64,000 nucleotides of DNA from positions 6,749 to 70,748 of the forward strand of contig JAEEKG010000103.1 in assembly GCA_016282315.1 (NCBI GenBank), read 5' to 3'. Below the pieces are notes generated by a model, which ran no database searches, was not told where the DNA came from, and saw only the letters and a list, made by a program, of their open reading frames with translations. Both the position numbers and the translations under genes were made by a program. The stretch is from Clostridiales bacterium (GTDB taxonomy: Bacteria > Bacillota > Clostridia > Oscillospirales > CAG-272). Shown here piece by piece: positions 40,892 through 55,585 of the stretch. Every line of letters begins with the position of its first letter. Positions within the stretch are counted from its first letter, which is position 1.

Positions 40892-41444
40892 CTATATGCA
40901 TTCATCAGCTCTCTTTTTTTGATTCACAGCTCCCTGTATTTCAGGAATAACTACTTGTACACAAAACTTATTGTTTTCTTCGTAAAAATCAAGCATACCA
41001 CTATATTTATGAACTATTTTTTTTATTATTTTTGTTCCGTACCCATGAGATGAGTCATCATTCTTTGTTGAGTAAAGATTTGGATTGCTTTTTAATACTG
41101 AACTATCGATTGTGTTTTTACAAATGATGATTCTGCTCGAGTTTTGTCTCATGAAACACAAATCTATTTCTTTTCCCGAAGAAAGATTTGCTCCTTCAAT
41201 CGCATTATCTATGATGTTGCAAATTAGACAAGCTAAATCTGTTTCTTTTATGTCAGAAGTGTTGCCAAGAGAACCATGAACACTCGTCTTTAAGTCATGT
41301 TTTTTTGATAGTTTATCATTAACCAAGTAATCGATTATTCTATTACCTGAAGAATAATAGTACTTTTCCTCTTAAAAAGATGATCTTACTTCGTTTATAT
41401 AAGTAATGCAGCTTTCGATTCTATTGTCGTTTAGCAAGCCATTT
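40892..41444 (-). pseudogene. AgrC-like (HPK10, GHKL) sensor histidine kinase, C-terminal fragment with in-frame TAA
   Basis: ATPase-domain blocks are present (LICNIIDNAIEGA, SSHGYGTKIIKKIVHKYSG). The same frame continues upstream (NGLLNDNRIESCITYINEVRSSF*EEKYYY..) through a TAA at 41381-41383 and up to the IS boundary. Confidence 0.8.
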
Positions 41445-41608
41445 TCTTAACTTCCTAAGAAATTAACCCTCACTGGTTTTAACCCTCGGTTTGATTATTC
41501 AAAAAGTCAATAAAATATTGGCGTTTTTTCGTTTTTTTTATTGCAAAAAACGTGCAGATATGGCATAATTATTAAGGGTTAATTAACCCTTAAAGAAAGA
41601 GCTATATC

Positions 41609-43354
41609 ATGTACTTGAATTGCAAAGTTAAAATACCTGAAAAAGGTGGAAATATAAGCATCAAAACCATTAGCGGAACCTCCTATGTTTATCTGGAAAA
41701 AGGGCGCGTATACAATAAAGAAAAGCAATACAACACCCCTACCAGGATCTGTATCGGCAAGAGGGATTCGGAGCAACCCGGCTTCATGCATCCGAATGAG
41801 AAGTTCTTGAAATTCTTTCCGAAAGAATTGCTTCCATTCGAAAAAGGTACTCAGTTCAGAAGTGGTTGCCTCCACTTTGGTGCATACACGGTTATTCGAA
41901 AGATAGTGGCAGAATATCAACTGGATGAAGTGTTAGGCCGAATTGTGGGTCAGGATGCAGGACTCTTTTTGGATTTGGCAGCATATTCCATTATTACTGA
42001 AGATAATGCGAGGCAGTATTATCCGGATTATGCCTATAATCATGCGTTGTTTACCGACAACATGAAGATTTATAGTGATTCAAAAGTGTCAGACTTTATA
42101 GGCAAGGTATCAATAGATCAGAGAATTGCCTTTTTGAACGAATGGAACAAGAAACGAGATCACAGAGAAAAGATATACATTTCAAATGATGCTACGAATA
42201 AGATAAGCCAAGCCGGAGATATCGAACTGGTAGAACTTGGCCATGCCAAGAAAGACTTAGAAACGGATATATTCAACTATTCTATAGCCTATGATCGAAA
42301 CAATCATGAACCATTGTTTTATGAAGCATATCTGGGTAGTATCGTAGATGTATCTCAGTTGCAGCACACATTAAAAAAAGCCAAAAGCTATGGCTATGAA
42401 CATGTCGGATTCATCCTGGACAGAGGATATTTCTGCAAAGAAAATATTGAGTTTATGGATGAGAGCGGATATGACTTTGTAATCATGGTCAAGGGAATGA
42501 AGACTCTTGTCAGTGAATTGATTCTGAATGTGCAGGGACAATTTGAAAATGACAGAGCCAAAAGCATTCGTTCTTATAAAGTAAGCGGGACAACCATCAA
42601 GCAAAAGCTGTTTGCCACAGACAAAAATGAACGGTATTTCCATATTTTCTATGATGATGGAAGGAAGGCAAAAGAAAGAGAAGCGCTTGAAGAAAAGATT
42701 GACCGGATGGGTCGAAAACTAAAGGAATGTATGGGCGAAACTATACATCCTCGTGGCGATTTTCAAAAGTATTTTGATCTTGTGTATTATCATGAAGGAA
42801 AGCCCGACGAAGTCTTTATGACCGGAATTGAGAAGACGGAAGTCATCAATCGGGACATTGAGTTGTGTGGCTATTTTGCAATAGTGACATCTGAAAAGAT
42901 GTCGGCAAAAGAGGCTCTGGAATTGTACAAGAGCAGAGACGAGTCTGAAAAGACATTCCGTGGGGATAAATCCTATCTTGGCGCAAATGCGGAACGGGTT
43001 TATTTGACGGAATCAATAGACACAAAGATATTCATTGGGTTTGTGGCTACAATCATTCGGAGCCGGATTTATGATCTTCTCAGGGAAGAAGTGGCACGGA
43101 TGGAGAAAAAGCAGAATTATATGACGGTTCCTGCGGCCATAAAAGAACTTGAGAAGATTGAACTACTGAAAGGGGCAGATAACGAATATAATCTTGATTA
43201 TGCTGTCACGGCAACGCAAAAAGCAATTCTTAAAGCTTTTGATATGACAGCAGAGGATATTCACAGACAGGCGCGAGCAATCAGCTCTGATTTGTTAAGA
43301 GTTGAACTGGAAACAATAGAGAAACAAAGCCAAAGGAGTGAATCAAAATCATGA
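41609..43354 (+). CDS. DDE transposase, IS4 superfamily (IS1634-like)
   Basis: 581 aa. The Y-(2)-R-(3)-E-(6)-K signature is present (LYKSRDESEKTFRGDK), and the N-terminal ..SYVYLEKGRVYNKEKQYNTPTRICIGK resembles IS1634-type transposases. Confidence 0.8.
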   Translation: MYLNCKVKIPEKGGNISIKTISGTSYVYLEKGRVYNKEKQYNTPTRICIGKRDSEQPGFMHPNEKFLKFFPKELLPFEKGTQFRSGCLHFGAYTVIRKIVAEYQLDEVLGRIVGQDAGLFLDLAAYSIITEDNARQYYPDYAYNHALFTDNMKIYSDSKVSDFIGKVSIDQRIAFLNEWNKKRDHREKIYISNDATNKISQAGDIELVELGHAKKDLETDIFNYSIAYDRNNHEPLFYEAYLGSIVDVSQLQHTLKKAKSYGYEHVGFILDRGYFCKENIEFMDESGYDFVIMVKGMKTLVSELILNVQGQFENDRAKSIRSYKVSGTTIKQKLFATDKNERYFHIFYDDGRKAKEREALEEKIDRMGRKLKECMGETIHPRGDFQKYFDLVYYHEGKPDEVFMTGIEKTEVINRDIELCGYFAIVTSEKMSAKEALELYKSRDESEKTFRGDKSYLGANAERVYLTESIDTKIFIGFVATIIRSRIYDLLREEVARMEKKQNYMTVPAAIKELEKIELLKGADNEYNLDYAVTATQKAILKAFDMTAEDIHRQARAISSDLLRVELETIEKQSQRSESKS

Positions 43355-43554
43355 GCAGAAGAGCGTTATCAATAGACCAAAAAATAGAAAAAGCCGAAGC
43401 ATTGGTTGCCTCGACTAAAGCAAAATATGACAAAGCGTTGGATGATTTAAAAATGCTTATTGACAAGCGAAAAGAGATGGAGAGCAAAAAGATTATTGAG
43501 CATATTATGCGGGTAACAAAACGGCTGATGAAAAGTCTCTTTCATACGATCTGA
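43351..43554 (+). CDS. Small helical ORF inside the IS (67 aa), possible accessory protein
   Basis: Its start overlaps the transposase stop (ATGA). The sequence is charged and coiled-coil-like (KIEKAEALVASTKAKYDKALDDLKMLIDKRKEMESKK). It lies inside the inverted repeats. Confidence 0.4.
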   Translation: MSRRALSIDQKIEKAEALVASTKAKYDKALDDLKMLIDKRKEMESKKIIEHIMRVTKRLMKSLFHTI

Positions 43555-43599
43555 AGGCCCAAAAGACGATTGAGGGTTAAAATTCTCAGGAAGTTAAGA

Positions 43600-44377
43600 C
43601 AGTTACTACAGCAAAGTGGTGATTTATATCAAGCTTTATGCTTTTGATTTCATTCAAATACTTTTTTGTTTCATTAATTTGTTCATCTTCATGGTTGTAT
43701 AAATCTTTCAGAATTTGTGCTTCATATTTAATTGTCAGAAGCTTCTGTACTTGATATAAAGAAATATAAAGGATAAGATTTACAACTGCAAAAATGATTG
43801 AAATTGTAAAAACTTGCCTTTTTATTTCTACTGACGTGTTGAGAACAATTAAGCCTAACGACTTTACTATTCAAAACAAACTTGATGCAGAAAAGAACAG
43901 TGATAACAAAAAAACTTTCCATTCACTTTTTTTATTTGATTTGAGCAGAAATAAAACAGATTTTAGTACCGATAATACTATGATTGTTTGTATCAATTCA
44001 ATAATACTCCATGTAAAAGCATCATTGGCTTCTATCATTGTTTTGAAGTCTTTGAACAATAAGATTGCAGCATGATAAATCGCTAAATTGGCCAAAATGA
44101 TTGTCGATTCTAGAATGATGGCCGGAATAAGACCCTTTAATTTTTTTGATGAAATCATTCCATAGACTACAAAAAGAACAAAAATGACCAAGTTTGTAAT
44201 AACATAATTGTTAAAAATGTAATGAAACACTGCAATAAACAAAAATAATACCAGAATCACCGGAATCAAGGATTTGTTCTTCTTTATGTTAAAAGCATAG
44301 CCATTGAAAGCGGTTATGAAATATATAACAAGAATGCTATTTGACAATAGCAGTGCAATATCAAATACAATAATCAA
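43600..44377 (-). pseudogene. AgrC-like sensor histidine kinase, N-terminal fragment (TM sensor domain and H-box) with in-frame TGA
   Basis: TTG start 7 nt after AAGGAG, followed by six hydrophobic helices. A TGA lies at 43871-43873. The same frame then continues (..YQVQKLLTIKYEAQILKDLYNHEDEQINETKKYLNEIKSIKLDINHHFAVVT) to the IS boundary. Confidence 0.8.
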
Positions 44378-44487
44378 TTAGTACTCCTTTTTCTTGTAAA
44401 CAGTAGGAAATCCTTTTTAAAATGCAAAAGTCGCCGTCTGCTAATAAAAAGTTTGTGATTGTTTATGGTTGTCAAACATAGATTGTT

Positions 44488-45111
44488 TTAGTCCACAAAT
44501 TTAATATGTTCTTTGTTTACATAAAAAGCAGGATGAACTTTAACAAATCTATTGCAACTTAAATCTTTTTCAAAATTATGAAGTGCACCCCGACAATGTA
44601 TGGTTCTATCTGAAATCAAATGAAATAAAGTATAATTACCGGAACTTTCCAAATATTCTATATCTTTTTGAATAACAACTTCATCCTTGTCATGTGTTGA
44701 TACTATGATTTTTAGATGATTTTCATCCAACTTGGCTATTAATTTTAGCAACAAATTTTCCAATTCTTCGTCGGTTTTTGTTTTTCTCGAAAAATAAGTA
44801 GGGGAATAATCAAATGAATCGTAGACATAATCATTGTGTGCGAATACGAAGACAATCATTGAATTAGAGAATTGTTTGTTGATTATTTTGGCTAAATCAA
44901 AACCATCAATTTCGGGCATGCCAATATCTAGGAAAACTACATCGACATGCTGTTTCCTCATTGCTTCCAACAACTCGTTTCCTGTTTTATATGGAGGGAG
45001 AACTATAAGTGATGATAAAAATGAATCGCTAGTGTTTTGAAAACATGAATTGATTTTTTGGAAAAGCATCTCTGAATAAGATGTGTTGTCATCGCAAATT
45101 GCAAATGTCAT
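44488..45111 (-). CDS. LytTR-family response regulator (REC + LytTR DNA-binding domain)
   Basis: REC blocks AICDDN and VVFLDIGMPEIDG. LytTR block IEYLESSGNYTLFHL..FVKVHPAFYVNKEHI. GAGGA precedes the ATG. At 207 aa it is about 25-30 aa shorter at the C-terminus than AgrA-like proteins. Confidence 0.85.
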   Translation of the reverse strand: MTFAICDDNTSYSEMLFQKINSCFQNTSDSFLSSLIVLPPYKTGNELLEAMRKQHVDVVFLDIGMPEIDGFDLAKIINKQFSNSMIVFVFAHNDYVYDSFDYSPTYFSRKTKTDEELENLLLKLIAKLDENHLKIIVSTHDKDEVVIQKDIEYLESSGNYTLFHLISDRTIHCRGALHNFEKDLSCNRFVKVHPAFYVNKEHIKFVD

Positions 45112-45192
45112 GGATGGTCCTCAAATGTAAATGATTGTCTTTTTTGTACAATTTTACTTTTTTACGATTGCAAATCAATACCATGGTTCTTA

Positions 45193-45314: not shown

Positions 45315-48300
45315 ATGAAAAACGATTATTCAGTAATCAAAAGAGTGTTGTCAATTTCAATTGTGATTGCAACATTTTTAACCATGCAGGGTATAGTCAT
45401 TTTGGCTGCAGACATAAAAAATGACATAATTGGTAATGAATATTCTTCATACAACGGCATTGATGAAAATGTAGTTGAATACAACTATGAAGAAGATGAA
45501 ATAGACCTTTCCACTCCATTAAATCCCTTTATTGAGATATACGAAAAGATAATTGAAGAAATAAGAAGTGGAAGACTTGCGCCTGTAACAAATGAAACAA
45601 GACTTTCAGAGTTGGAAAACAGAGCCGAAAGAGAAATAAGAACAAGAGATCTTACTGTACAGGATTTGAATTACAATGAATATGTAAGGGACTATACAAA
45701 CAAATATGTTATAGAAAAAGGAAGCGAAACAATAGACTTGAGCACACTGTCGGTAGGCAGAGAATTCAGTGTGGGAAAAATAGTGGGACGAAACGGAATC
45801 GGCACAGAACTGCTCATCAGGTACGACCTGGATGAAAGCAGCAGTTTTGCGCCGCATTTTATAAAATCTGAAAATGTGAAATACAGCGTAAAAAGAACAT
45901 CTATTCTTATAGATTTGACCAATGAAACGGTTTGCTATCTTGAAACGGAAATCAATACTTATTCGACATATAATGCTGCATATAACGATGCATCACATCA
46001 GAATTCCGGAGTATATGAATATAGCGAAAACGGCATAGATTACTGCTTTATACAAGGACAGCTTATGTCTTTCGACTCATATTATGAGTACGAACTCTAT
46101 TATGACCAAAAAGATATACATTTGACAAATATGCAATTGTCTGACGGCTGGAGATTTAATATACCATACATAGAAATCCAGGTTTGTGGTGGGAACAATT
46201 TGTCATATTATCAGGTTCTTCATCTTGACAATGGCATGTCTGTAAATATGCAGGATTATATAGTAACGCAAAGACCGCTTGAAGATATAATGGTTACGAC
46301 AGGAACATTTGCAACAAGTGCAGGGACAGCGACAGTAAAAGCGGTTCTGCTTAACGGAACAACATATTATTTCAATTCAATCAACGACTGTATAAGAAAA
46401 GAAGACAGATACGGAAACGGAATAAATTACATATATAACCCGCAGGAAGGGTACATTTCTGAGATAATTGCAGATACAGGTGCAAAGATAGTATTTGCAT
46501 TCACCAATTCTTCTATAACAATAACATCTCCAGATGGCGGTGTAGTGACTATAGGGATAATCGTAGATACAGACGACAACAGAGAAGTCACATCGATAGA
46601 TTATGGCGCAAATGAAATATACACTTTTGAATATGCCAAATCTGGTTACAATATATTTGACGGAAATAATATCATAGACATAGTTGAATACAATAAACTC
46701 ACCAAGTTAACTGAACCTAGCGGAGCGTACTGCCAGTATATATACAGCACAGTGTCTGCAGGCTGGGGAACATACAAAAGACACTACCCGGTTCTCCAAA
46801 GTAAGAGTGTAAAAGAGAACAATGAAACAAAGTATCTAACAACATACGGGGCCACCGGAACAGCATTTGATACACAAAGTTTTGAAAGCATGAATGTGGA
46901 TGATTATACGTACACAATTAGTGTAACAGAAGGTGTCAAGGCTTCATACTACACGTTTAACATCAATAATCTCTGCACAAAACAAATATTCAGTGACGAA
47001 ACAGTAACAAAGACGTATAACGAATATTATCTTCCCACAACAGTCACAAAGAAGGTGGGAAGCATGATTGCTGCAGAAAGCTATACCTATGATTCAAGAG
47101 GAAATGTTCTTACATATACAAATCCACAGGGAAATGTGACAACATGCACATACAGCCAGTTATACGGTCTTCTTCTGTCAAAGACTTTTGGAAACTTGAG
47201 GGTGGAAAGCACTCTTAGTCAGGACAATAAGGCGATATCAAAAGTAGAAAAATACTGGAACAATACTCTGGTCAACAGAACTGACTTTACATATGATACA
47301 TATGGTAACGTTTTGACTGAAACTGAATACATTTACCCCGGAACAAATACAAGAACAATAACATATTCCTATACAGATAATGTCACAAGATCCCAAGGCA
47401 TTGATTATAGTGGCATGTTTGTCACATCAAAGACAATAACAGGAGTGAAAGACGCAGACAACCAGACTGTTGGAACAATAACTTATTCAAACAGTTATGA
47501 CTTGCTCGGAAGAGTATTGTCAAGTACTGATGCTGAAAATAATACGACTACTTACACATATAACACAAAAGGGCAGCTTACTACAGTAACATATCCAAAC
47601 AATTCAACAGAAAACTACAATTATGATTCTGCTAATGAGAGGGTAACATATACAGACAGAAACGGATATGCACTGACAACTCAATATGACTATCTAGGCA
47701 ATGTTCTAACTGTAAAAGAAAACAGTACAAACTATGTGCTGCAGACAAACACTTATGACTTATATGGAAGAACAGCAACAAGTGCCAATTACGGATCCCA
47801 ATCTGTGACTGAATACACTTATGACATAAAGGACAGGGTAACATCACAAAAGATAAAGAACTCACAGGGAACAGTCCAATACCAGGAAAACTATTCATAT
47901 TCAGTTGTTGGCACAGGAGGAGCATATTATCTCAAAACAGTTAAAACGATACTTGGAGATACAAACTCACCATCAATAGTGACAAGTGAATATGTAAACA
48001 AAATGGGACAAAAAGCAAGAAGTGGTGAATTTATAGGCGAAACGGAAGTTTTGACAATAAATACCTATGACATTTACGGAAATGTGTTGTCTGTAAGCAG
48101 AAACGGCAGGACAGTAAGTTATACTTATGACTATAACGGCAAAGTACTTACAGAGACAAATGCCCTTAACAATACAACAACATATACTTATGACAACCAG
48201 GGAAATGTACTCACGGCAACAGATCCACTGAATGGTCAGGTGACCAATACATATGACATACTTGGCAGAAAGATAAAGACTACAACAATCCTTCAGACAG

Positions 48301-51113
48301 GTGTCACAAACATAACAAAAGAATACTACAACAAAAACAATCAGAATACAGAGACGAAAGTGACGGATTCAAACGCCACGGTTTTCCTGCGCACTCAGAA
48401 TACATATGACGGCATGGGAAATGTTACGGCAGTGACGCAGTATGACGGGAATAATACAATAACAAAGAGTCTGACATACAACAATGCAGGAAAAGTATTG
48501 ACAGAGACGATAAACGGAAAAACCACAACAAACACTTATGATTTCAGAGGCAACCTTTCAAGTGTGACTGATGCTATGAATCACGTTGAAACATATGTAA
48601 TTGATTCGAATGGTCTTTTGACAATCAAAACAGACAGGAACGGAACAGTATTTGCATATACATATGACAGCCTTGGAAGAGTACTTACGGAAACGGCGAT
48701 GAAGAACAACTTAAGTCAGACGAAGACTTATACATATACAAAAACAGGACTTTTAAGGAGCACGAACAACAACGGAGTAGTGGTTACAAACACATATGAT
48801 AACTTCGGAAGGCTGACAATTCAGAATGAAAGTGACGGGATAACCCACAGATATTTTTATAACAACAATAATGAGAGAATCGAGTACAAACTCATAATAA
48901 ACGGAGAAACAGAATTGTGGGAGAAATACACATATAACGCAGCAGGGCAGATGCTTACTACGAATGAAGTTAAAAAGACTGAAATTCAGGTAAGCACAAT
49001 AAACCAGTCTGGACATCAGAGCAATTCGGTCTTATCTTCAGACGGAATAGTGCTTGGAACATATTCCATAGTAAACAGCAATGGAGATATATTGGTATAT
49101 GACTCAACAAGCACAATAGTAATGAACATCAAGTTTACGGGAATAAACGTATGCGGAGAGATTTATCTTGACAGCCTGGGCAATGTTGATTCAGGATATG
49201 TTATCTACAGCGGTGAAGAATATGACTTTGGAAACATAAGTTATTATGATCCGGAAGAGATGCTCGGACAGGGAGTATCTGTAATCTACTACATCACAAA
49301 TGCAAGTGGAACAATTACAGATACAATAATGGCGGATGTTCCACTAACCCCAATGCCCGGAGAAGGGATAATCAGCTGGGTATATGAAGGATTTTTGTGT
49401 CCTACAGAGTCAGAAGTTGAATATGTCGAACAGTCGCCATTTGTGACATATACTTATGACGCAAGAGGCAATGTAACCAAAGAAGAATACAAAAACGGGA
49501 CAGAAACCATATATACATATTATTCATCAGGATTACCTCACACAATTGTAAACAAGAAGGGCAACACAACATTGTCCTCATTCAGTTATACCTACTATCC
49601 TGACGGAAACATAGCAAGTGTGACAGAGATTGGAAAAGTGACATACTACGGCTATGACGGATATGGAAGATTGACCGAGGAAAGAACAGTTGCAAACAAC
49701 AATATAAAGATGGTATCATATACTTATGACAACAATGGTAACAGAACGAGCAAAACAGAGAACGGGATTTTGACCAGTTATACTTATGACAACAACAATA
49801 GAATAACGACGGAACTGACAGGAACTATACTCACGTATTATTCATACGATAACAATGGCAATCTGCTCAGCAGCCTGGCCGGAGGAAACTACACAGGAAC
49901 ATATACCTATGACCTGTTCAACAGGGAAAAGAGTTTCACACCAAACTATATAGGGTACACTTACTATACATACAGAGCAGACGGACTGAGACACTCAATC
50001 GGAAGCACAACACACTGCTGGGACGAAACAAATATAGTTTGTGATATTGATGGAACAGACTATACTCTCTATTTCAGAGCAATAAGTCTTGTGGTCTACA
50101 GAGAAAACAAGACGGACAAGTACTATCTCAAAAATATCCAGGGAGACACAGTTCAGCTGACAAACGCAAGTGGAGTTGTAGCAAAGAGTTACAAATACAA
50201 CGGATACGGCGATGAGAAAGACAAAGATCCAAGTGACAACAACCCATTCAGATACAGAGGAGAATACTACGATAAAGTAACCGGAACGATATATCTTAGA
50301 GCAAGAAGTTATTCAGCATCAAGAGGAGTATTCACAACAGAAGACCCTATCAGAGATGGAAACAACTGGTTTGGATATTGCACTGGCAATCCGGTTAATA
50401 TTATTGATCCAACTGGATGCATTAGCAGGGATACCGTTTTAGCTATATTAGATAGTGACAGTGGTCCTGAAGGCAATTTTAATCCTTTGAAAAGAAAACC
50501 ATACAAGGATAATATGGATGTTATTAATGGAATTGTACATTTTTGCTTCGGTTTTTCTTTTGAAGCTGTTATAGACGAGATTGATTTATCATTTTTCAAA
50601 TACAATCATGCTTTTTCCAAAACAATAATGATTGAGTACACTGACAGTGAAGAGTTTTTTAATGTTTCATCTGACCTCTCATCACATAGTTTTAGCGTAT
50701 CATTAAGAAATCTAAAAGATGACGAAGAGATAGGTATTAATTTTTACATGGATGGAATAGGCATTGAAACCAGATTTGGTGATTATTCATTCGAATTAAA
50801 AAAGGGTGTTGATTTTTATGACTTTTCGTTCAACTATTTTCTTTCTAATGGTTGGCGTGATAGTCATACATTTACCATAAGCGAGAATGATTTGAATAAA
50901 CGCATCGACTGTTTAAAATGGCAATCTAAACAAAAGGAAACAGTACCATTGACTTTGCCAAAACCTATTTCAGAACCTTCAATTGTTGATAAAGTGGTTA
51001 TAATTGGTGCGGCGTCGTTGGTGGTTGGATTTGTGATTGGTGCGTGTGCTAAAATGAAGCCATCAATGGCTATAAAAGAAGGGTTAAATCCTTTGAAAAT
51101 CTTATTTAACTAA
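45315..51113 (+). CDS. Rhs/YD-repeat polymorphic toxin with N-terminal signal sequence and variable C-terminal domain
   Basis: N-terminal signal-like sequence, many YD repeats (YTYDSRGNVLTY, FTYDTYGNVLTE, YTYDNQGNVLTATDPLNG ...), and the Rhs core end NPFRYRGEYYDKVTGTIYLRARSYSASRGVFTTEDPI..NPVNIIDPTGC at about 50240-50420. An unrelated tail of about 230 aa follows. Confidence 0.9.
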   Translation: MKNDYSVIKRVLSISIVIATFLTMQGIVILAADIKNDIIGNEYSSYNGIDENVVEYNYEEDEIDLSTPLNPFIEIYEKIIEEIRSGRLAPVTNETRLSELENRAEREIRTRDLTVQDLNYNEYVRDYTNKYVIEKGSETIDLSTLSVGREFSVGKIVGRNGIGTELLIRYDLDESSSFAPHFIKSENVKYSVKRTSILIDLTNETVCYLETEINTYSTYNAAYNDASHQNSGVYEYSENGIDYCFIQGQLMSFDSYYEYELYYDQKDIHLTNMQLSDGWRFNIPYIEIQVCGGNNLSYYQVLHLDNGMSVNMQDYIVTQRPLEDIMVTTGTFATSAGTATVKAVLLNGTTYYFNSINDCIRKEDRYGNGINYIYNPQEGYISEIIADTGAKIVFAFTNSSITITSPDGGVVTIGIIVDTDDNREVTSIDYGANEIYTFEYAKSGYNIFDGNNIIDIVEYNKLTKLTEPSGAYCQYIYSTVSAGWGTYKRHYPVLQSKSVKENNETKYLTTYGATGTAFDTQSFESMNVDDYTYTISVTEGVKASYYTFNINNLCTKQIFSDETVTKTYNEYYLPTTVTKKVGSMIAAESYTYDSRGNVLTYTNPQGNVTTCTYSQLYGLLLSKTFGNLRVESTLSQDNKAISKVEKYWNNTLVNRTDFTYDTYGNVLTETEYIYPGTNTRTITYSYTDNVTRSQGIDYSGMFVTSKTITGVKDADNQTVGTITYSNSYDLLGRVLSSTDAENNTTTYTYNTKGQLTTVTYPNNSTENYNYDSANERVTYTDRNGYALTTQYDYLGNVLTVKENSTNYVLQTNTYDLYGRTATSANYGSQSVTEYTYDIKDRVTSQKIKNSQGTVQYQENYSYSVVGTGGAYYLKTVKTILGDTNSPSIVTSEYVNKMGQKARSGEFIGETEVLTINTYDIYGNVLSVSRNGRTVSYTYDYNGKVLTETNALNNTTTYTYDNQGNVLTATDPLNGQVTNTYDILGRKIKTTTILQTGVTNITKEYYNKNNQNTETKVTDSNATVFLRTQNTYDGMGNVTAVTQYDGNNTITKSLTYNNAGKVLTETINGKTTTNTYDFRGNLSSVTDAMNHVETYVIDSNGLLTIKTDRNGTVFAYTYDSLGRVLTETAMKNNLSQTKTYTYTKTGLLRSTNNNGVVVTNTYDNFGRLTIQNESDGITHRYFYNNNNERIEYKLIINGETELWEKYTYNAAGQMLTTNEVKKTEIQVSTINQSGHQSNSVLSSDGIVLGTYSIVNSNGDILVYDSTSTIVMNIKFTGINVCGEIYLDSLGNVDSGYVIYSGEEYDFGNISYYDPEEMLGQGVSVIYYITNASGTITDTIMADVPLTPMPGEGIISWVYEGFLCPTESEVEYVEQSPFVTYTYDARGNVTKEEYKNGTETIYTYYSSGLPHTIVNKKGNTTLSSFSYTYYPDGNIASVTEIGKVTYYGYDGYGRLTEERTVANNNIKMVSYTYDNNGNRTSKTENGILTSYTYDNNNRITTELTGTILTYYSYDNNGNLLSSLAGGNYTGTYTYDLFNREKSFTPNYIGYTYYTYRADGLRHSIGSTTHCWDETNIVCDIDGTDYTLYFRAISLVVYRENKTDKYYLKNIQGDTVQLTNASGVVAKSYKYNGYGDEKDKDPSDNNPFRYRGEYYDKVTGTIYLRARSYSASRGVFTTEDPIRDGNNWFGYCTGNPVNIIDPTGCISRDTVLAILDSDSGPEGNFNPLKRKPYKDNMDVINGIVHFCFGFSFEAVIDEIDLSFFKYNHAFSKTIMIEYTDSEEFFNVSSDLSSHSFSVSLRNLKDDEEIGINFYMDGIGIETRFGDYSFELKKGVDFYDFSFNYFLSNGWRDSHTFTISENDLNKRIDCLKWQSKQKETVPLTLPKPISEPSIVDKVVIIGAASLVVGFVIGACAKMKPSMAIKEGLNPLKILFN

Positions 51114-51143
51114 GAAATAAGCATATTAATTAACAGTTTTGAT

Positions 51144-52292
51144 ATGAGGATGGGTATGAGAGTTATTAGGTTATCAGCGTTTTCAATTATGATTGTAATC
51201 ATGTTTTTACTTGTGTGCAGTTGCAAAGGTTTTTTTGATATTAGAATGCCAAAACCCATTGAAAAGTATAACGGAATAAGTGATGATGAAAAAGAATTGG
51301 CAATAGAATCATTAAAAGCATGGGTAGATGATTATAGTGTAAGTCCGCAAGTGATATATAGAGTGTTTGTAATTGTAGATGGAATAAACACCGAGGTTAT
51401 TTATGGTGATTTAACGAGAAATAAAGTGTTGTGGTTGCAAATGCTTTCGTCAATAGAGCGTAAAAAAATAGGCTATTTGAAATCACATTTTCAGGGTAAT
51501 TTGTTATACATCGTGCCATATAAAGAAAAGTTGGCAAAAGTGGACTTTTACGAATGCAATGTTAAAGATGTGAAAACCTATGATTGTTGGCGGAATTACA
51601 TTACTGAAATATATGATTCAAATGTTGATGGAATGAATAAGCTTTTTGATTTGGTTTTTAACTTTGATAATATCAGTGATATATCAAAAGGAGAAAAAAC
51701 AGTTGCCATCCAAACGGCAAACTTTTATAAATTCACATTTGAAGATGTTCAAATAAGTCCGCTAACCAGTCTTGTAATAGATAATTGCGATGTTAAGTTG
51801 AATAATGATTATTTTGTGGTTGAATTGTATGAAAATAATATGTTAACAATAAAAACCAAAGTCATTTTTAACAATCAAGAGCAAGAAATTTTTATGAGTT
51901 TACAGTGCAGTGACTCTAAAAGTTTCGACAAAGCTGTTCTTGATTATATAAAAGAGAAAGACGCCATCAGTTTTAATGATGGGTGGCCTGAAGAATACAA
52001 ACTTTTTTTGAAGGATACAATCAAAACTTCTGATGTTCCCGTGCCCATTGGCATGTCAGAATACAATGAAATATGGAAAGATGGAAAATCATGTTTTATT
52101 GCGAATTTTTTGTCAACAGAAGGCTTTGTAGAAAACTATTCAAGTTTATTGTTGGAAAATGGCTTTTCGTATTTGAAATATGGGGAGTTGTATCAAAAAT
52201 ATTATAAAGATGAAAAAGGTGATTACTTCAGAGTAACGATAAGATTTAGTAGTTTGGATGGTACTGACATTATCGAAATGTATATCTCTTGA
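51144..52292 (+). CDS. Exported protein (signal peptide, possible lipobox LVCSC); candidate immunity protein for the Rhs C-terminal toxin
   Basis: It lies immediately downstream (30 nt) of the rhs stop on the same strand. GAGGA at 51146-51150 favours ATG 51156 as the start. No recognisable family. Confidence 0.55.
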   Translation: MRMGMRVIRLSAFSIMIVIMFLLVCSCKGFFDIRMPKPIEKYNGISDDEKELAIESLKAWVDDYSVSPQVIYRVFVIVDGINTEVIYGDLTRNKVLWLQMLSSIERKKIGYLKSHFQGNLLYIVPYKEKLAKVDFYECNVKDVKTYDCWRNYITEIYDSNVDGMNKLFDLVFNFDNISDISKGEKTVAIQTANFYKFTFEDVQISPLTSLVIDNCDVKLNNDYFVVELYENNMLTIKTKVIFNNQEQEIFMSLQCSDSKSFDKAVLDYIKEKDAISFNDGWPEEYKLFLKDTIKTSDVPVPIGMSEYNEIWKDGKSCFIANFLSTEGFVENYSSLLLENGFSYLKYGELYQKYYKDEKGDYFRVTIRFSSLDGTDIIEMYIS

Positions 52293-52596
52293 GTTCAAAA
52301 GGGATAAGTGGTGTGATTACAGATTTATTTATGTGTGAGAAATGTAGGTGCAGAGCTTTGAGCATCACTATGCGTTGTGCCTTTTTTGGCAATCTTTGAG
52401 ACGTTTGAACTAAGCGTTTAACATTTCGGAACACTATTCCAAAAAAGGAGTTTTGTCTTTTATGAGTTCTCGCCATCAAAAACACTTGTTAAGCATTGTC
52501 AACTGTTACTTATAAATGGTGGTTTTTCAATTGATAAAGACAATTCAAAGTTGCTATACAAAGAAAAATGAGAAGTTATAATAAGTGTATTAATAG

Positions 52597-52675
52597 ATGA
52601 TTCTTCATCTTATGTTATGATTGTCATAACTACGTACACAAAAAAAACATATCTGATCCAAAAACAGAATTAAGT
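52597..52675 (+). repeat. Direct repeat copy 1 (about 80 bp)
   Basis: ..atcttatgttatgattgtcataactacgtacacaaaaaaaacatatctgatccaaaaacag.. is nearly identical to 54287-54366. It contains the palindrome gttatga-ttg-tcataac. Confidence 0.8.
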
Positions 52676-52890: not shown

Positions 52891-53976
52891 ATGATGAGCG
52901 ATAACAAAAAAGAACTTGGAATTGTTGGCATAATACTCTTTTCGTTGTTAGTACCAATAGATTGGTTAATAATGAGTTTTTTTGATATATTTGGTGGGAT
53001 TGTTTCCATCAGTGCACCTGTATTAATGATTATGGGATTTAGATTATTTTCGAATGCCTTTGATAAAAAAAAGTGGAGAATGGCAATTGTTTTAACAACT
53101 ATAGTTTACATTATTGTTTTAATTCTGACATGGTATAGTTTTTTATCTCTTAATGCATATAAATCTCTAATCCAAGATTATGAATTGCATCCAGAATTAT
53201 TTACAAACAAGCCATCGTATTTGAGATGTTTTGCAAATCCAAATGATAGATTTGTCGAACTTGGCAGTAGTGATGTATCGTCACTGTTTGAGACATTGTT
53301 GATTGCTTTAATAATATTTGTTAACTATGTGTTTAATTTCAAAAGAGATATTAGAATTTTGGCACAACCAACTAATCCCAAACCCCAAGAGAGTATAACA
53401 AACAAATTGTTGAGCAAGAACAGCGGTAGAATAATTGTTGGCTTGGTTTCTTCCTTTCTATCATTGACTCTTTTCGTATTATTTTTGTACCTAATTACCA
53501 AAAGCGAACGCTTTGCTGGATTTGAGTGTGTACCTATATTGTTTATTCCGACGATTGTATTTAAATCTCTATCAGTAATTATTCATGGAGTTGTAAAAAA
53601 ACCAATGAGGACCATTTTGATTTTTATAACAATCAGTGTAACCCTTTCGATTATTGCAATTGTTTTAACAGGTGTTTTATTAACTGGTGATTGGGATGAA
53701 TATACATTTTATTATCCATTTTACCACAATGTGAATAATTACATATTTGCTATCAAACAAGGTCTTTTGTGTGCTATTTTATACTCACTTATTTATCCCA
53801 TTTTTGGCATAGTAGAAAACTTTGCCTTATTTAACATAAAAAAAGTGTTTACTATCGATGCTTTTGAGGACTTTTGTGGTAGAAATGTTTGTGAAAAAAA
53901 AGATCACGATGAACCAACAAAAGAAGATAATATAGAAACAAAAACAGATTTAGAGGAGAACCATTCGACAAAGTAA
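52891..53976 (+). CDS. Polytopic membrane protein (361 aa, about 8 TM), function unknown
   Basis: Long hydrophobic ORF with a weak RBS. Its last ~10 codons and stop (from ~53945) are encoded by rhs-core-homologous DNA read in another frame. Confidence 0.65.
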   Translation: MMSDNKKELGIVGIILFSLLVPIDWLIMSFFDIFGGIVSISAPVLMIMGFRLFSNAFDKKKWRMAIVLTTIVYIIVLILTWYSFLSLNAYKSLIQDYELHPELFTNKPSYLRCFANPNDRFVELGSSDVSSLFETLLIALIIFVNYVFNFKRDIRILAQPTNPKPQESITNKLLSKNSGRIIVGLVSSFLSLTLFVLFLYLITKSERFAGFECVPILFIPTIVFKSLSVIIHGVVKKPMRTILIFITISVTLSIIAIVLTGVLLTGDWDEYTFYYPFYHNVNNYIFAIKQGLLCAILYSLIYPIFGIVENFALFNIKKVFTIDAFEDFCGRNVCEKKDHDEPTKEDNIETKTDLEENHSTK

Positions 53977-54289
53977 CCTAAACGATATATCTTAGATCAA
54001 GAAGTTATTCTGCATCAAGAGGAGTATTCACTGCAGAAGACCCTATCAGAGATGGAGATAGCTGTGGGTTGGGTATAGTGTAGAAAATCCAGTTAATAGG
54101 ATTGTTTTTAATGGTGAAGGATGGTGGTATTGGGTAATAGTTGCTGCAGTTGTTGATTGCACTGCAGCAAAAGTCATTACTGCTGGCGGTTTTTCAGCGG
54201 CAGCAAGAGTTGTATTGGCAGTGGCGTCAGGAACGGCGGTCGCAACAACTGGAGCAACAATAGCAGCAAGCGCGACTATTGATCAATGA
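53945..54289 (+). pseudogene. Orphan rhs C-terminal cassette (core-end fragment plus different short hydrophobic C-terminus), decayed
   Basis: 53945 to about 54100 aligns to 50249 to about 50400 of the main rhs gene (..RFRGEPFDKVT*TIYLRSRSYSASRGVFTAEDPIRDGD..). It has an in-frame TAA at 53979-53981 and a 2-nt length difference that shifts the frame before ..WVGYSVENPVNRI... A Gly/Ala-rich hydrophobic tail then runs to the TGA at 54287-54289. Confidence 0.75.
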
Positions 54290-54366
54290 TTATTTATCTT
54301 ATGTTATGATTGTCATAACTACGAACACAAAAAAATAACATATCTGATACCAAAGACAGCTTAATA
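54287..54366 (+). repeat. Direct repeat copy 2 (about 80 bp)
   Basis: It matches 52597-52675 with a few substitutions and two 1-nt indels. It begins at the stop codon of the orphan cassette. Confidence 0.8.
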
Positions 54367-54463: not shown

Positions 54464-55585
54464 ATGGTTAAAAAAATTGTGCATTTTGTCAAGATGCACG
54501 TAGTGTTCTGTATTGCAGCTCTTGCTGCAATAATCAGTTGCTTTTTAATTCCTCCAGATGAAGGATATCTTTCATATATTGACTATAAGACAATTGCGTG
54601 CCTTTTCGCCACCCTGGCCGTTGTTTGCGCATTGAGAAACATCATGTTCTTTACAATATTGTCCAGAAGAATTGTAAGAATAGTGGGCAATTTGAGAACG
54701 CTTGCAATTACTCTTGTCGTAATGACATTCGTAGGATCCATGCTGATTGCAAATGACATGGCATTGATCACTTTTTTGCCGCTTGGATATCTCTCATTGT
54801 CAGTTACAGGTCAGGAAAAGCACAGCGCATTTATATTCATACTTCAGAATATCTCAGCAAACCTCGGAGGCATGCTTACTCCGTTCGGAAATCCGCAGAA
54901 TCTGTATTTGTATTCGTACTTTAATATTCCAACTGGCGAATTTCTGCAAATAATGCTTCCGCCGTTCTTGTTGGCAGTTACTATGCTTATTATTTGTTGT
55001 CTTCCTCTTCCTGCAGAAAAGCTCAAGGTTGATGAACAAGTTGCTAAGCCTCTTCCGAAGGTCAAGACAAGTCTGTACATAGCGCTGTTTATACTGTCAA
55101 TTCTCGCAGTTTTCCGAATTATTCCGTATTATATAGTTGCGGTTCTTATTCTAGTGGTGCTGTTGTTTATTGACAGAGAAGCATTGGCGGCTGTTGACTA
55201 TCCTTTGTTGCTTACATTTGTTGCATTCTTTATATTTGCAGGCAATATGTCAAGATTACAGGTCTTAAATGATTTGTTGTCATCATTGCTTGAAAAGAAT
55301 ACATTCTTTGTTTCAATCGGGTCTTGTCAAGTAATAAGCAATGTTCCGACAGCGATACTTTTATCCAGGTTTACTACAAATTACAAAGATTTGCTATTGG
55401 GAGTCAACATAGGTGGTACGGGAACGCTTATTGCGTCTCTAGCCAGCCTCATAACATTCAGTGAATTCAAGACTTTGTATCCTACTGAAGTTAAGAAATA
55501 TATCAAGATGTTTGTATTGCTCAACTTGCTGTTCCTTGTGGTTTTGAGCGGAGCAACGTATTTGTTGTCTTTATTTGTAAAATAG
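54464..55585 (+). CDS. Polytopic ion/anion permease (ArsB/NhaD / CitMHS-superfamily-like)
   Basis: 373 aa with 10-11 hydrophobic helices and no soluble domains. Its general resemblance to ArsB/NhaD-type permeases is from memory only. Confidence 0.6.
   Translation: MVKKIVHFVKMHVVFCIAALAAIISCFLIPPDEGYLSYIDYKTIACLFATLAVVCALRNIMFFTILSRRIVRIVGNLRTLAITLVVMTFVGSMLIANDMALITFLPLGYLSLSVTGQEKHSAFIFILQNISANLGGMLTPFGNPQNLYLYSYFNIPTGEFLQIMLPPFLLAVTMLIICCLPLPAEKLKVDEQVAKPLPKVKTSLYIALFILSILAVFRIIPYYIVAVLILVVLLFIDREALAAVDYPLLLTFVAFFIFAGNMSRLQVLNDLLSSLLEKNTFFVSIGSCQVISNVPTAILLSRFTTNYKDLLLGVNIGGTGTLIASLASLITFSEFKTLYPTEVKKYIKMFVLLNLLFLVVLSGATYLLSLFVK

Follow-up and report, generated by a model that had tools for sequence, protein, structure and literature searches.

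That an Rhs tail may act on membranes and be paired with an exported immunity protein is already a known concept, with precedents in Tse5, the C-terminal domain (CTD) of BiTLP, TelC/TipC and Imm65. Tse5 (RhsP1) of Pseudomonas aeruginosa is an Rhs pore-former (PMC9637101, PMC10684867). The hydrophobic CTD of BiTLP, a YD-shell protein of Bacillus inaquosorum, is reported to be toxic only when exported, with entry of propidium iodide (PMC13018210). The LXG toxin TelC of Streptococcus intermedius was assayed for toxicity fused to a signal sequence (ss-TelCtox), and its immunity protein TipC has a signal sequence and was purified as TipC-delta-ss (PMC5555719). Imm65 and other exported immunity proteins are lipobox-anchored or secreted, their location matching the site of the toxin, according to Zhang et al. 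2012 (PMC3482391).

The locus we describe is like the WapA-type Rhs/YD systems in having a signal sequence, an RHS shell, a core of the form DPxG...DPxG with a tail after the motif, a (here putative) immunity gene immediately downstream, and orphan core fragments and orphan immunity genes following. It differs from them in that neither tail nor partner has a match among the described Tox/Ntox and Imm families, that a large lipoprotein takes the place of their small cytoplasmic partner, and that a transmembrane (TM) helix ends the tail. It lies in a stretch of 64,000 nucleotides (the window) from a rumen Ruminococcus-like Firmicute, whose Rhs protein is Sec-exported. A histidine kinase gene adjacent in the window is split by an IS element. 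The Rhs gene and its parts are as follows.

45315..51113, + strand: Rhs/YD-repeat polymorphic toxin gene, 1932 aa (ORF list, RHS/YD profile matches, hydropathy)
50196..50420, + strand: Rhs-associated core, aa 1628-1702, the final conserved block ahead of the polymorphic tail (TIGR03696)
50421..51113, + strand: CT-A, a 230-aa orphan C-terminal tail and putative toxin, aa 1703-1932, which follows DPTGC and has no family match
50481..50933, + strand: predicted folded domain of CT-A, tail residues ~21-171 (helices, beta meander, helix 155-171; AF2/DSSP)
50994..51050, + strand: C-terminal TM helix VVIIGAASLVVGFVIGACA, Rhs aa 1894-1912 (Kyte-Doolittle score 2.57)
51051..51110, + strand: 20-aa Lys-rich tail KMKPSMAIKEGLNPLKILFN after the TM helix (sequence, flank charges)

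On its repeats, on a core motif ahead of the tail and on the polymorphic tail itself, the window protein belongs to the Rhs/YD polymorphic toxins. Its N-terminus carries a Sec-type signal or anchor (aa 6-32); the RHS shell follows and then a variable C-terminal tail, with matches to the Pfam profile RHS_repeat (PF05593, E 2.7e-41, 12 stretches) and the NCBIfam profile YD_repeat_2x (TIGR01643, E 4.6e-31). The Rhs_assc_core profile (TIGR03696, E 1e-16) covers aa 1628-1701, and the conserved core ends with DPTGC (aa 1698-1702), part of a predicted autoproteolysis motif, DPIRDG...DPTGC, that reads DPIRDGNNWFGYCTGNPVNIIDPTGC. CT-A begins exactly at this motif, where Rhs proteins bear exchangeable toxins. 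Identity to the Rhs homologue at locus L006 falls from 90-100% in the core to 43-73% directly after DPTGC, and DNA homology with the sister locus L001 ends at DPTGC and restarts at the lipoprotein gene downstream (LP-A in the window). Cores that are 80-91% identical bear unrelated tails, namely A, B and those of L013, L014 and L015. We consider it reasonably likely that nt 50421-52292, from the start of CT-A to the end of LP-A, are a toxin/immunity cassette of the polymorphic kind, belonging to an Rhs protein that is exported by Sec.

CT-A is an orphan in both sequence and fold. There is no family match to it in Pfam, NCBIfam, PADLOC or the PDB sequences, the sole NCBIfam line lying below threshold (E 0.044, 12.8 bits vs a cut-off of 432), and the known toxin families considered (nuclease, deaminase, ART, peptidase, Tox-WTIP and others in Pfam/NCBIfam) gave no significant profile match. 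Across 5.8 billion clusters, and in 1.84 billion representative proteins scanned exhaustively with HMMER, CT-A has one true relative, in a sister lineage; a second HMMER match, a eukaryotic repeat protein, is not a true relative. An earlier reading of this DNA (the sequence-only reading) had begun the tail after DPTGC, given it as about 230 aa (aa 1703-1932) and found it unassignable to any toxin type it could recognise, and on all three points it agrees with the profile, PDB and Foldseek searches; the fusions to LXG or other scaffolds that it suggested looking for are absent from the 1.84 billion representatives.

The AF2 model of CT-A, built on an alignment of two sequences, has a mean pLDDT of 59 (53-85 in the core) and, together with the sequence, gives a layout of linker, two to three helices, 9-strand antiparallel beta meander, helix, Pro/Ser linker, TM helix and tail; the predicted core is an up-and-down meander with helices flanking it. 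Foldseek finds no significant match to this model (best E 0.011, TM ~0.2), and the weak best neighbours are small ligand-binding barrels: fHbp and TbpB barrels, lipocalins, Ups1 and START-like domains. The predicted meander and these neighbours would suit an outer-face toxin that forms no pore, in which the TM-held meander binds or cleaves a lipid-linked envelope precursor (lipid II, undecaprenyl phosphate) or another surface component and the lipoprotein blocks the site. TelC/TipC, as proposed for CT-A/LP-A a Gram-positive interbacterial toxin with an immunity protein that has a signal sequence, is a precedent for action on a wall precursor (PMC5555719), although TelC is a soluble Ca-dependent lipid II phosphatase on a T7SS/LXG scaffold with no TM helix, whereas CT-A is not on LXG. 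Non-catalytic toxins, and secreted or TM immunity proteins against surface-acting toxins, are described by Zhang et al. 2012 (PMC3482391). We nevertheless regard a non-pore activity as rather unlikely, as all the structural matches are insignificant (E at least 0.011, TM 0.16-0.21), two sequences allow no catalytic motif, and the model is of low to moderate confidence.

Hydropathy (Kyte-Doolittle, 19-residue window) finds two hydrophobic segments in the entire Rhs protein, aa 6-32 and aa 1894-1912, of which VVIIGAASLVVGFVIGACA is the sole internal one. The single homologue of CT-A has a hydrophobic 19-mer in the same columns, followed by a conserved CAKM.P....KEG, and because the segment keeps its position there even though dN/dS over the TM and tail region is about 1.2, almost neutral, we take these features to be beyond chance. 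The helix that the sequence-only reading had placed at about nt 50988-51050 is therefore real and conserved in position, with computed limits of 50994-51050. The 20-aa tail that follows (KMKPSMAIKEGLNPLKILFN; four Lys, one Glu) is predicted to be cytoplasmic by the positive-inside rule, the topology being inferred. A sortase-type sorting signal was rejected: the hydrophobic segment and charged tail are present, but no LPXTG-like motif precedes the C-terminal TM helix, the window reading ...VPLTLPKPISEPSIVDK-TM and the homologue ...EPFGLPIIVSEPSIDNN-TM with nothing motif-like conserved. A tail of 20 aa is also long for a sortase sorting signal.

With an N-terminal signal, a single other hydrophobic 19-mer right at the C-terminus and a C-side richer in Lys/Arg, the Rhs precursor has a layout for which Sec topogenesis rules predict N-out/C-in. 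The TM helix and Lys-rich tail might then be a stop-transfer anchor in the producer, displaying the precursor as a type I membrane protein, with CT-A as a tether or cis-acting module and the lipoprotein as a partner in the same membrane and not as protection from an incoming toxin; tails B and C have the same layout as CT-A, and a further means of anchoring would help, given that a search of the first 695 aa gave no cell-wall-binding or S-layer domain. We think such a role improbable, since the tail occupies the exchangeable toxin position and is swapped for unrelated tails on cores of 80-91% identity, occurs also as an orphan cassette with its lipoprotein (a pattern of toxin/immunity modules, not of structural anchors) and has the near-neutral TM and tail region noted above, and since Rhs tails normally sit inside the shell.

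A toxin whose tail inserts into a membrane has its nearest counterparts in BiTLP and Tse5. The BiTLP CTD resembles CT-A as a cleaved hydrophobic C-terminal fragment, with one predicted TM region, of a Sec-exported Gram-positive YD-shell protein, and the passages on the toxic fragment describe no lipoprotein partner (PMC13018210). CT-A differs in that a sizeable beta-rich domain precedes the helix, and homology between the two is not evident at the level of the searches, BiTLP being absent from the HMMER matches in the 1.84 billion representatives. Tse5 shares with the putative mode of CT-A an Rhs-encapsulated, non-enzymatic, membrane-inserting tail, but is delivered by a T6SS from a Gram-negative host, and neither HMMER over the same representatives nor the PDB sequences show sequence similarity between them. 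The Tse5 tail is helical and its immunity protein membrane-bound.

The features of the downstream gene are these.

51144..52292, + strand: mechanical ORF of the lipoprotein gene, 382 aa (ORF list)
51146..51150, + strand: Shine-Dalgarno sequence GAGGA, 5 nt 5' of ATG 51156 (sequence; a homologous AGGAGGA lies upstream of the L011 gene)
51156..52292, + strand: LP-A, 378-aa lipoprotein and putative cognate immunity protein (start set by homologues and Shine-Dalgarno sequence)
51210..51224, + strand: lipobox L-V-C-S-C, the predicted lipidated Cys being residue 27 of the 382-aa ORF (alignments)

Because GAGGA stands at 51146-51150 and the homologues begin MRVIRL, the true start of LP-A is probably ATG 51156, so that the 382-aa protein of the sequence-only reading exists as an ORF and is probably four residues too long; its proposal that the protein is exported fits the signal segment and the lipobox with its invariant Cys. 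LP-A has one hydrophobic segment, at the N-terminus, followed by the lipobox, and by these two marks is predicted to be an exported lipoprotein. The lipobox columns read L-V-C-S-C in the window, L-V-S-S-C in the A-type homologues and L-S-S-C in the divergent lipoprotein LP-C, and we take the LP-A lipobox to fit the PROSITE PS51257 pattern. No significant profile match to known immunity families (Pfam Imm*, SUKH, others) was found; the sub-threshold Pfam lines are DUF6956 (19.1 bits vs a cut-off of 27) and WxLIP_PGBD (15.5 vs 27.3), the best E in a PDB profile search is 0.11, and the structure model is unusable (pLDDT 41). The 2012 survey describes a single immunity family made up of lipoproteins, Imm65, which goes with Tox-JAB-1 (PMC3482391), whereas LP-A has no Pfam Imm match at all. 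At 378 aa LP-A is large for an immunity protein, which counts against the cassette.

The LP-A family comprises three subtypes only, all from rumen Clostridia, and a profile search returned no members outside the contexts of CT-A/CT-C-type tails or their scars. Every copy is preceded, at a distance of 25-42 nt, by an Rhs tail laid out like CT-A or by the scar left from one; at L006 and L008-L012 the homologous tail CT-A' and the lipoprotein gene LP378 are 28 nt apart. LP-C (33% identity to the window lipoprotein, E 4e-21) lies directly 3' of the orphan tail CT-C, which has a CT-A-like layout, in a classical orphan array, and at L019 CT-C is fused to an Rhs core fragment. At L001 the tail has been displaced by another and the lipoprotein gene remains, with a scar of 18 codons of the old tail A' (EPLKIVQERTDNFLTLH*) between Imm44 and LP378. 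Signal sequences read by eye show that, within the same Rhs clade, the compartment of the neighbour matches the type of tail: lipoproteins come after tails A and C, N-terminally anchored proteins after the L013 tail, and proteins without a signal sequence after the soluble C-terminal-domain tails of L014 and L015. The lipoprotein tracks tails A and C and not the Rhs scaffold generally, L013 and L014 being without one. CT-B is homologous to CT-C (z = 5), yet a multi-TM protein and not a lipoprotein comes next, and the rule for neighbours is therefore not uniform. There is no terminator-like site between the Rhs and lipoprotein genes.

Tail and lipoprotein genes diverge much faster than the Rhs core and are nonetheless under purifying selection. 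Compared between lineages, core, tail and lipoprotein are 90-91%, 58% and 70% identical, with dN/dS of 0.08-0.12, 0.52 and 0.35 respectively at similar dS; for the folded domain of CT-A against its L006 homologue dN/dS is 0.36, from which we conclude that this domain is under purifying selection. Comparative genomics supports CT-A and LP-A as a cognate pair, as the sequence-only reading had suggested, the basis being adjacency in two divergent pairs, an orphan lipoprotein beside a scar, and fast rates compared with the core. The conserved adjacency could partly reflect common ancestry, as the rumen lineages that carry the family are few and closely related. In the sister lineage the module may be decaying, where the Rhs gene has a premature TGA and, in one MAG, frameshifts as well, and where one MAG also has a lipoprotein gene damaged by the same class of lesions (frameshift/stop). 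These lesions, the extremely narrow distribution and the IS element in the neighbouring kinase gene would suit a decaying or non-functional remnant, currently without a role, but we judge this very improbable, since in the window the ORFs are intact (1932 and 378 codons), a good Shine-Dalgarno sequence precedes the lipoprotein gene, and dN/dS is low for both the folded tail domain and the lipoprotein.

Beyond LP-A lie two further features.

52891..53976, + strand: polytopic membrane protein, 361 aa, ~7-8 hydrophobic segments (hydropathy, blastp)
53945..54285, + strand: degraded orphan rhs fragment with core 3' end, in-frame stop, frameshift and the first ~60 codons of a tail (repeat and translation)

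The fragment is an 87% repeat of 50249-50368 and has 80% identity to L015:436-771, and its tail part is Gly/Ala-rich, hydrophobic and of the L015 type. Polytopic immunity proteins are typical for membrane-inserting toxins, examples being CdiI (EC93 ionophore) and TsaI (TspA). In L001 a 319-aa protein homologous to the 361-aa one (blastp E 7e-11) comes directly after CT-B, a tail of related layout, and in the window both the lipoprotein and the 361-aa gene are downstream of CT-A, so that the polytopic protein two genes down might confer protection, alone or with the lipoprotein, which would then be an accessory, a receptor or merely a linked gene. We hold this to be quite improbable. At L006 and L011, both with CT-A', the lipoprotein is present and a homologue of the multi-TM gene absent, the L006 lipoprotein being followed by opposite-strand housekeeping genes; in the window the multi-TM gene is set apart by ~600 nt closed in all frames and abuts the degraded rhs fragment; and it is the lipoprotein that tracks tails A and C. 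The 361-aa protein is probably an orphan immunity gene that CT-A does not need.

On balance we favour, with moderate confidence, CT-A/LP-A as a toxin/immunity pair acting outside the cytoplasm. In such a pair the core aspartyl protease would free CT-A following export, and its beta-rich domain would act on a neighbouring Gram-positive cell, at the outside of that cell's cytoplasmic membrane, with the one C-terminal TM helix inserting so that the Lys-rich tail lies inside; in the producer and its kin, lipoprotein tethered to the outer leaflet would bind and block the beta domain there. Our best guess at the toxic act, a tentative one, is permeabilisation or depolarisation of the membrane by the inserted and possibly oligomerised tail. 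Delivery is complicated by standard Sec topogenesis, under which the producer's own membrane should hold back the C-terminal TM helix. A speculative and doubtful extension is that tails A, B and C form a class of tail-anchored Rhs toxins, in which the TM helix serves first as a stop-transfer, the whole shell is displayed on the Gram-positive producer as a type I membrane protein, shielding in cis comes from a lipoprotein of the outer leaflet or from a polytopic protein, and the tail is handed to the neighbour's membrane on contact; if true, a contact-dependent toxin would be mounted and delivered in a manner not described before, with no T6SS, T7SS or wall-binding domain.

The sequence-only reading had put the pair forward as the best candidate in the window for a new toxin/immunity family, with a suggested target at the membrane or cell-wall face, and of this the very rare orphan family stands, while the concept has the precedents named at the outset. 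How a Sec-exported Rhs protein gains access to its target without an injection machine is a question posed explicitly in the 2026 paper on a teneurin-like protein (PMC13018210). The interbacterial weapons of rumen Clostridia are almost unstudied. The module is small (230 + 378 aa), and we regard it as a rare, lineage-restricted example of a well-known system and not as a new principle; if confirmed, it would enlarge the catalogue of polymorphic toxins by a new toxin fold and a new immunity family of lipoproteins, and would be another Gram-positive case of an Rhs tail acting outside the cytoplasm.

The 1932-aa protein matches RHS_repeat in Pfam (E 2.7e-41, 12 stretches) and YD_repeat_2x in NCBIfam (E 4.6e-31), and an Rhs-associated core (TIGR03696, E 1e-16) occupies residues 1628–1701; by these matches it is a bona fide Rhs/YD protein. 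As the core ends here and the DPTGC motif lies at residues 1698–1702, the start of the C-terminal tail, which we call CT-A, corresponds to the point at which Rhs proteins switch from core to exchangeable toxin.

45315–51113, + strand, Rhs gene, 1932 aa
50421–51113, + strand, CT-A tail, residues 1703–1932 (230 aa), starting directly after DPTGC

The sequence-only reading had described a tail of about 230 residues after DPTGC, ending in a hydrophobic helix and 20 further residues, and both descriptions hold. A Kyte-Doolittle scan of the whole Rhs protein finds only two hydrophobic segments, an N-terminal signal region (residues 6–32) and VVIIGAASLVVGFVIGACA (residues 1894–1912, nt 50994–51050, score 2.57), the latter followed by 20 residues that include four Lys and one Glu. 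A sortase sorting signal at the end of CT-A was considered and excluded because no LPXTG-like motif is conserved there.

CT-A has no match in Pfam, NCBIfam or PADLOC, nor among PDB sequences, profile searches included. A word-indexed search of 5.8 billion clusters returned a single homologue, P0001 (59% identity), and an exhaustive profile scan with HMMER, covering 1.84 billion representatives, gave P0001 again together with one eukaryotic repeat artefact. Because P0001 is the one homologue in both searches, we find no CT-A on an LXG or other scaffold in public data; the earlier suggestion to look for the domain on such polymorphic-toxin scaffolds has thus been followed up, with none among the 1.84 billion representatives. 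In all, the word-indexed search, the HMMER scan and scans of metagenomes and genomes brought in one homologue of the tail and two more subtypes of the lipoprotein. The AlphaFold2 model of CT-A, built on a two-sequence alignment, is of moderate quality (mean pLDDT 59, pTM 0.62, with blocks of 53–85 over residues about 21–170) and predicts two to three helices that lead into a nine-strand antiparallel meander and, after it, a helix at residues 155–171, with low confidence in a Pro/Ser linker, the TM helix and the end tail. Foldseek comparison of this model with PDB and BFVD gave no match at E <= 0.001, the top matches being assorted small beta barrels (E 0.011, TM about 0.2). The initial impression that the tail carries no recognisable toxin motif therefore stands across Pfam, NCBIfam, PADLOC, PDB sequences and Foldseek.

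Directly downstream is LP-A, a lipoprotein and the putative cognate immunity protein.

51144–52292, + strand, LP-A ORF as called
5 nt before ATG 51156, + strand, Shine-Dalgarno sequence GAGGA

LP-A has a single N-terminal hydrophobic segment followed by the lipobox L-V-C-S-C, and its homologues start with MRVIRL and have the lipobox L-V-S-S-C, the Cys being invariant, which bears out the signal peptide and lipobox proposed at first sight. The real product is most likely a 378-aa lipoprotein starting at ATG 51156, 42 nt past the Rhs stop, because of the MRVIRL start of the homologues and the placement of GAGGA before this ATG. The interval from the Rhs stop to the LP-A start contains no terminator-like site, and scans of the module and its surroundings for promoters, terminators and RNA elements were uninformative. 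Seven close homologues share about 70% identity with LP-A; family databases and PDB profiles gave nothing above curated threshold, and the AlphaFold2 model was unusable (pLDDT 41), its Foldseek list being noise. A profile search with LP-A and its divergent homologue LP-C added no further members, so that all known copies of the family stand directly behind a tail of the A/C architecture or a scar of one. A 567-aa lipoprotein, which comes after the LP-A-type homologue LP378 in L001 (11206–12909) and L011 (2383–2862) and is missing from the window, was rejected as an LP-A relative, as no relationship was found.

The related loci come from metagenome assemblies and MAGs, including uncultured Ruminococcus sp. 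RUG13708 and Clostridiales bacterium RUI217; RUG and STEW19 in the labels presumably denote cattle-rumen data sets. In L006 and L008–L012 a sister-lineage tail, CT-A', is followed by LP378 at a distance of 28 nt, and in L006 opposite-strand housekeeping genes come right after LP378, so no other gene of the neighbourhood is needed. In two independent assemblies of this lineage the same in-frame TGA interrupts the Rhs gene some 190 codons ahead of DPTGC (L006:2254–2256 and L012:6043–6045), where the window has GGC (Gly), and in L012 (MAG RUG13708) the Rhs gene is in addition frameshifted and the lipoprotein gene cut short. Probably the toxin is being lost in the CT-A' lineage, or a 410-aa C-terminal piece is made from an internal GTG.

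Loci L001–L005 share flanking genes and a LytTR two-component system with the window and hence represent the same chromosomal locus. Their Rhs core is 80% identical to that of the window, but their tail, CT-B, is unrelated, and is followed by genes for a 319-aa polytopic membrane protein, Imm44 (E 1.4e-11) and LP378, in that order. DNA homology between L011 and L001 ends at DPTGC and returns for the final 55 nt of the CT-A' gene, and between Imm44 and LP378 L001 retains EPLKIVQERTDNFLTLH and a stop, the terminal 18 codons of a tail of CT-A' type. By this alignment L001 is a textbook C-terminal displacement that has left an orphan putative immunity gene. A classical orphan array is found in L015, where one cassette holds a 218-aa tail, CT-C, in which a beta-rich domain and a helix precede a single C-terminal TM helix and 14 final residues; LP-C, of 383 aa, lies 25 nt beyond it and matches LP-A with E 4e-21 (33% over 184 aa). 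In L019 a truncated CT-C is still fused to an Rhs core fragment and precedes an LP-C-like gene. Homology of CT-A to CT-B or CT-C is unproven (blastp E 1–6, hhalign probability 2.4%, shuffle z 0.7–2.1); given the same layout and a homologous partner, common ancestry is plausible but unproven, with no sequence similarity detectable. CT-B and CT-C are homologous to each other (shuffle z = 5), yet their neighbours differ.

Comparison of the window with L006 shows that identity falls from 90–91% in the core to 70% in the lipoprotein and 58% in the tail.

dN/dS between the window and L006
Rhs core: 0.08–0.12
Tail, whole: 0.52
Tail, folded domain: 0.36
Tail, last 60 residues: 1.2
Lipoprotein: 0.35

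As dS is alike in all regions (0.35–0.57), tail and lipoprotein change several-fold faster than the scaffold while still under selection, which is the usual signature of a toxin/immunity pair. Pseudogenisation in the sister lineage is not the cause of the fast tail, since the part of the core downstream of the premature TGA, which serves as a control, keeps a dN/dS of 0.08.

A second gene in the window has to be weighed as a possible source of immunity.

52891–53976, + strand, 361-aa polytopic membrane protein
53945–54285, + strand, degraded orphan rhs fragment, copying the 3' end of the core at 87% and broken by an in-frame stop and a frameshift

The 361-aa protein, which has no significant match in Pfam, NCBIfam or PADLOC, is homologous to the protein encoded after CT-B (E 7e-11) and is on that account an alternative immunity candidate. 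However, the gene is missing from the CT-A' loci, and in the window it stands at a distance of about 600 nt and adjoins the degraded rhs fragment, so that we read it, provisionally, as an orphan immunity gene. The final 10 codons of the 361-aa ORF lie within the fragment, which continues into about 60 codons of a Gly/Ala-rich hydrophobic tail with 80% DNA identity to the start of the intact main tail of L015. A B-type tail remnant upstream of the 361-aa gene was sought by tblastn and none was found. The gene and the fragment are flanked by a direct repeat (52588–52663 and 54277–54354; 59–76 nt, 86–90% identical, with the palindrome GTTATGA-TTG-TCATAAC), which occurs nowhere else in the window, is absent from the 19 related loci and may be a recombination or deletion boundary.

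The LytTR system lies upstream of the Rhs gene and is divergent from it. Because it flanks the Rhs gene in L001–L003 as well, the arrangement suggests that it regulates the toxin. In the window an insertion sequence at about 41450–43600 (DDE_Tnp_1 transposase ORF 41609–43354) interrupts its histidine kinase gene (40931–44377), leaving residues 18–275 at 44377–43604 and residues 276–446 at 41443–40931; the kinase of L001 is intact (449 aa). The response regulator (44389–45120, − strand) may also be truncated, its ORF encoding 207 aa versus 267 aa in L001, with similarity running about 100 nt past the stop. A CitMHS transporter gene, which in L001–L003 stands upstream of the two-component system (L001:1–81), is placed on the downstream side of the Rhs island in the window (54464–55585, + strand), and synteny with L001 returns at about 55648, where a 377-aa ORF matches GNAT (Acetyltransf_1) below threshold. 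Judged from gene order, the Rhs island is rearranged.

Within this Rhs clade, tail layouts and signal sequences were judged by eye. In L014 (1171–1935) and the main tail of L015 (598–1365), 60–100 hydrophobic residues rich in Gly, Ala, Val and Thr follow the cleavage motif and precede a soluble domain, and the proteins encoded next lack signal sequences; a possible role for these stretches is membrane translocation of toxins that act in the cytoplasm. Behind tails A and C come lipoproteins. In L013 (3524–5465) two paralogous proteins of about 207 aa come after the tail, both bearing a membrane anchor at the N-terminus, which makes this tail another putative surface-acting toxin with exported immunity candidates. 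Pfam scans of the L013, L014 and L015 tails were empty, and these tails therefore give no functional anchor. The proposal that an exported partner implies a site of action outside the cytoplasm draws support from the way in which neighbour type varies with tail layout across the clade.

CT-A thus occupies the toxin position, is tightly and repeatedly linked to a lipoprotein, and both evolve fast. We consider that the two probably form a toxin/immunity module acting outside the cytoplasm. The Rhs protein would be exported by Sec and its tail released by the core aspartyl protease; the beta domain would then work at the exterior side of the cytoplasmic membrane of a neighbouring cell, where the C-terminal helix would hold it with the Lys-rich tail facing inwards, as the positive-inside rule predicts. 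In kin cells the lipoprotein, sitting on the outer leaflet, would bind and neutralise it. Ordinary Sec topogenesis, on the other hand, predicts arrest of the TM helix in the producer's own membrane, and the Rhs protein may for this reason be a surface-tethered type I protein, a reading that we regard as rather improbable.

Assuming a module that acts outside the cytoplasm, the leading candidate for the toxic act, put forward tentatively, is membrane permeabilisation or depolarisation, favoured because two precedents point that way. One report (PMC13018210) describes a hydrophobic, TM-containing C-terminal domain of a Bacillus YD-shell protein that is toxic only with a signal peptide and admits propidium iodide; it resembles CT-A in being a TM-containing tail of a YD-shell protein. 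Tse5 is an Rhs pore-former (PMC9637101, PMC10684867), and CT-A would resemble it as a membrane-acting Rhs tail. Next comes binding or cleavage of a lipid-linked wall precursor, by analogy with TelC/TipC (PMC5555719), which we think unlikely.

The repeats, core motif, polymorphic tail and orphan cassettes that mark Rhs polymorphic toxins are all present, and by these features the system belongs to that kind; neither tail nor lipoprotein falls into any described toxin/immunity family. Published precedents exist both for an Rhs tail that acts on the membrane and for an immunity protein that is exported or a lipoprotein, the latter in the lipoprotein immunity family Imm65 and the secreted or TM immunity proteins for surface-acting toxins described by Zhang et al. 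2012 (PMC3482391). On these grounds CT-A/LP-A is a new and very rare putative toxin/immunity family of a known kind, and one that should come as no surprise to specialists.
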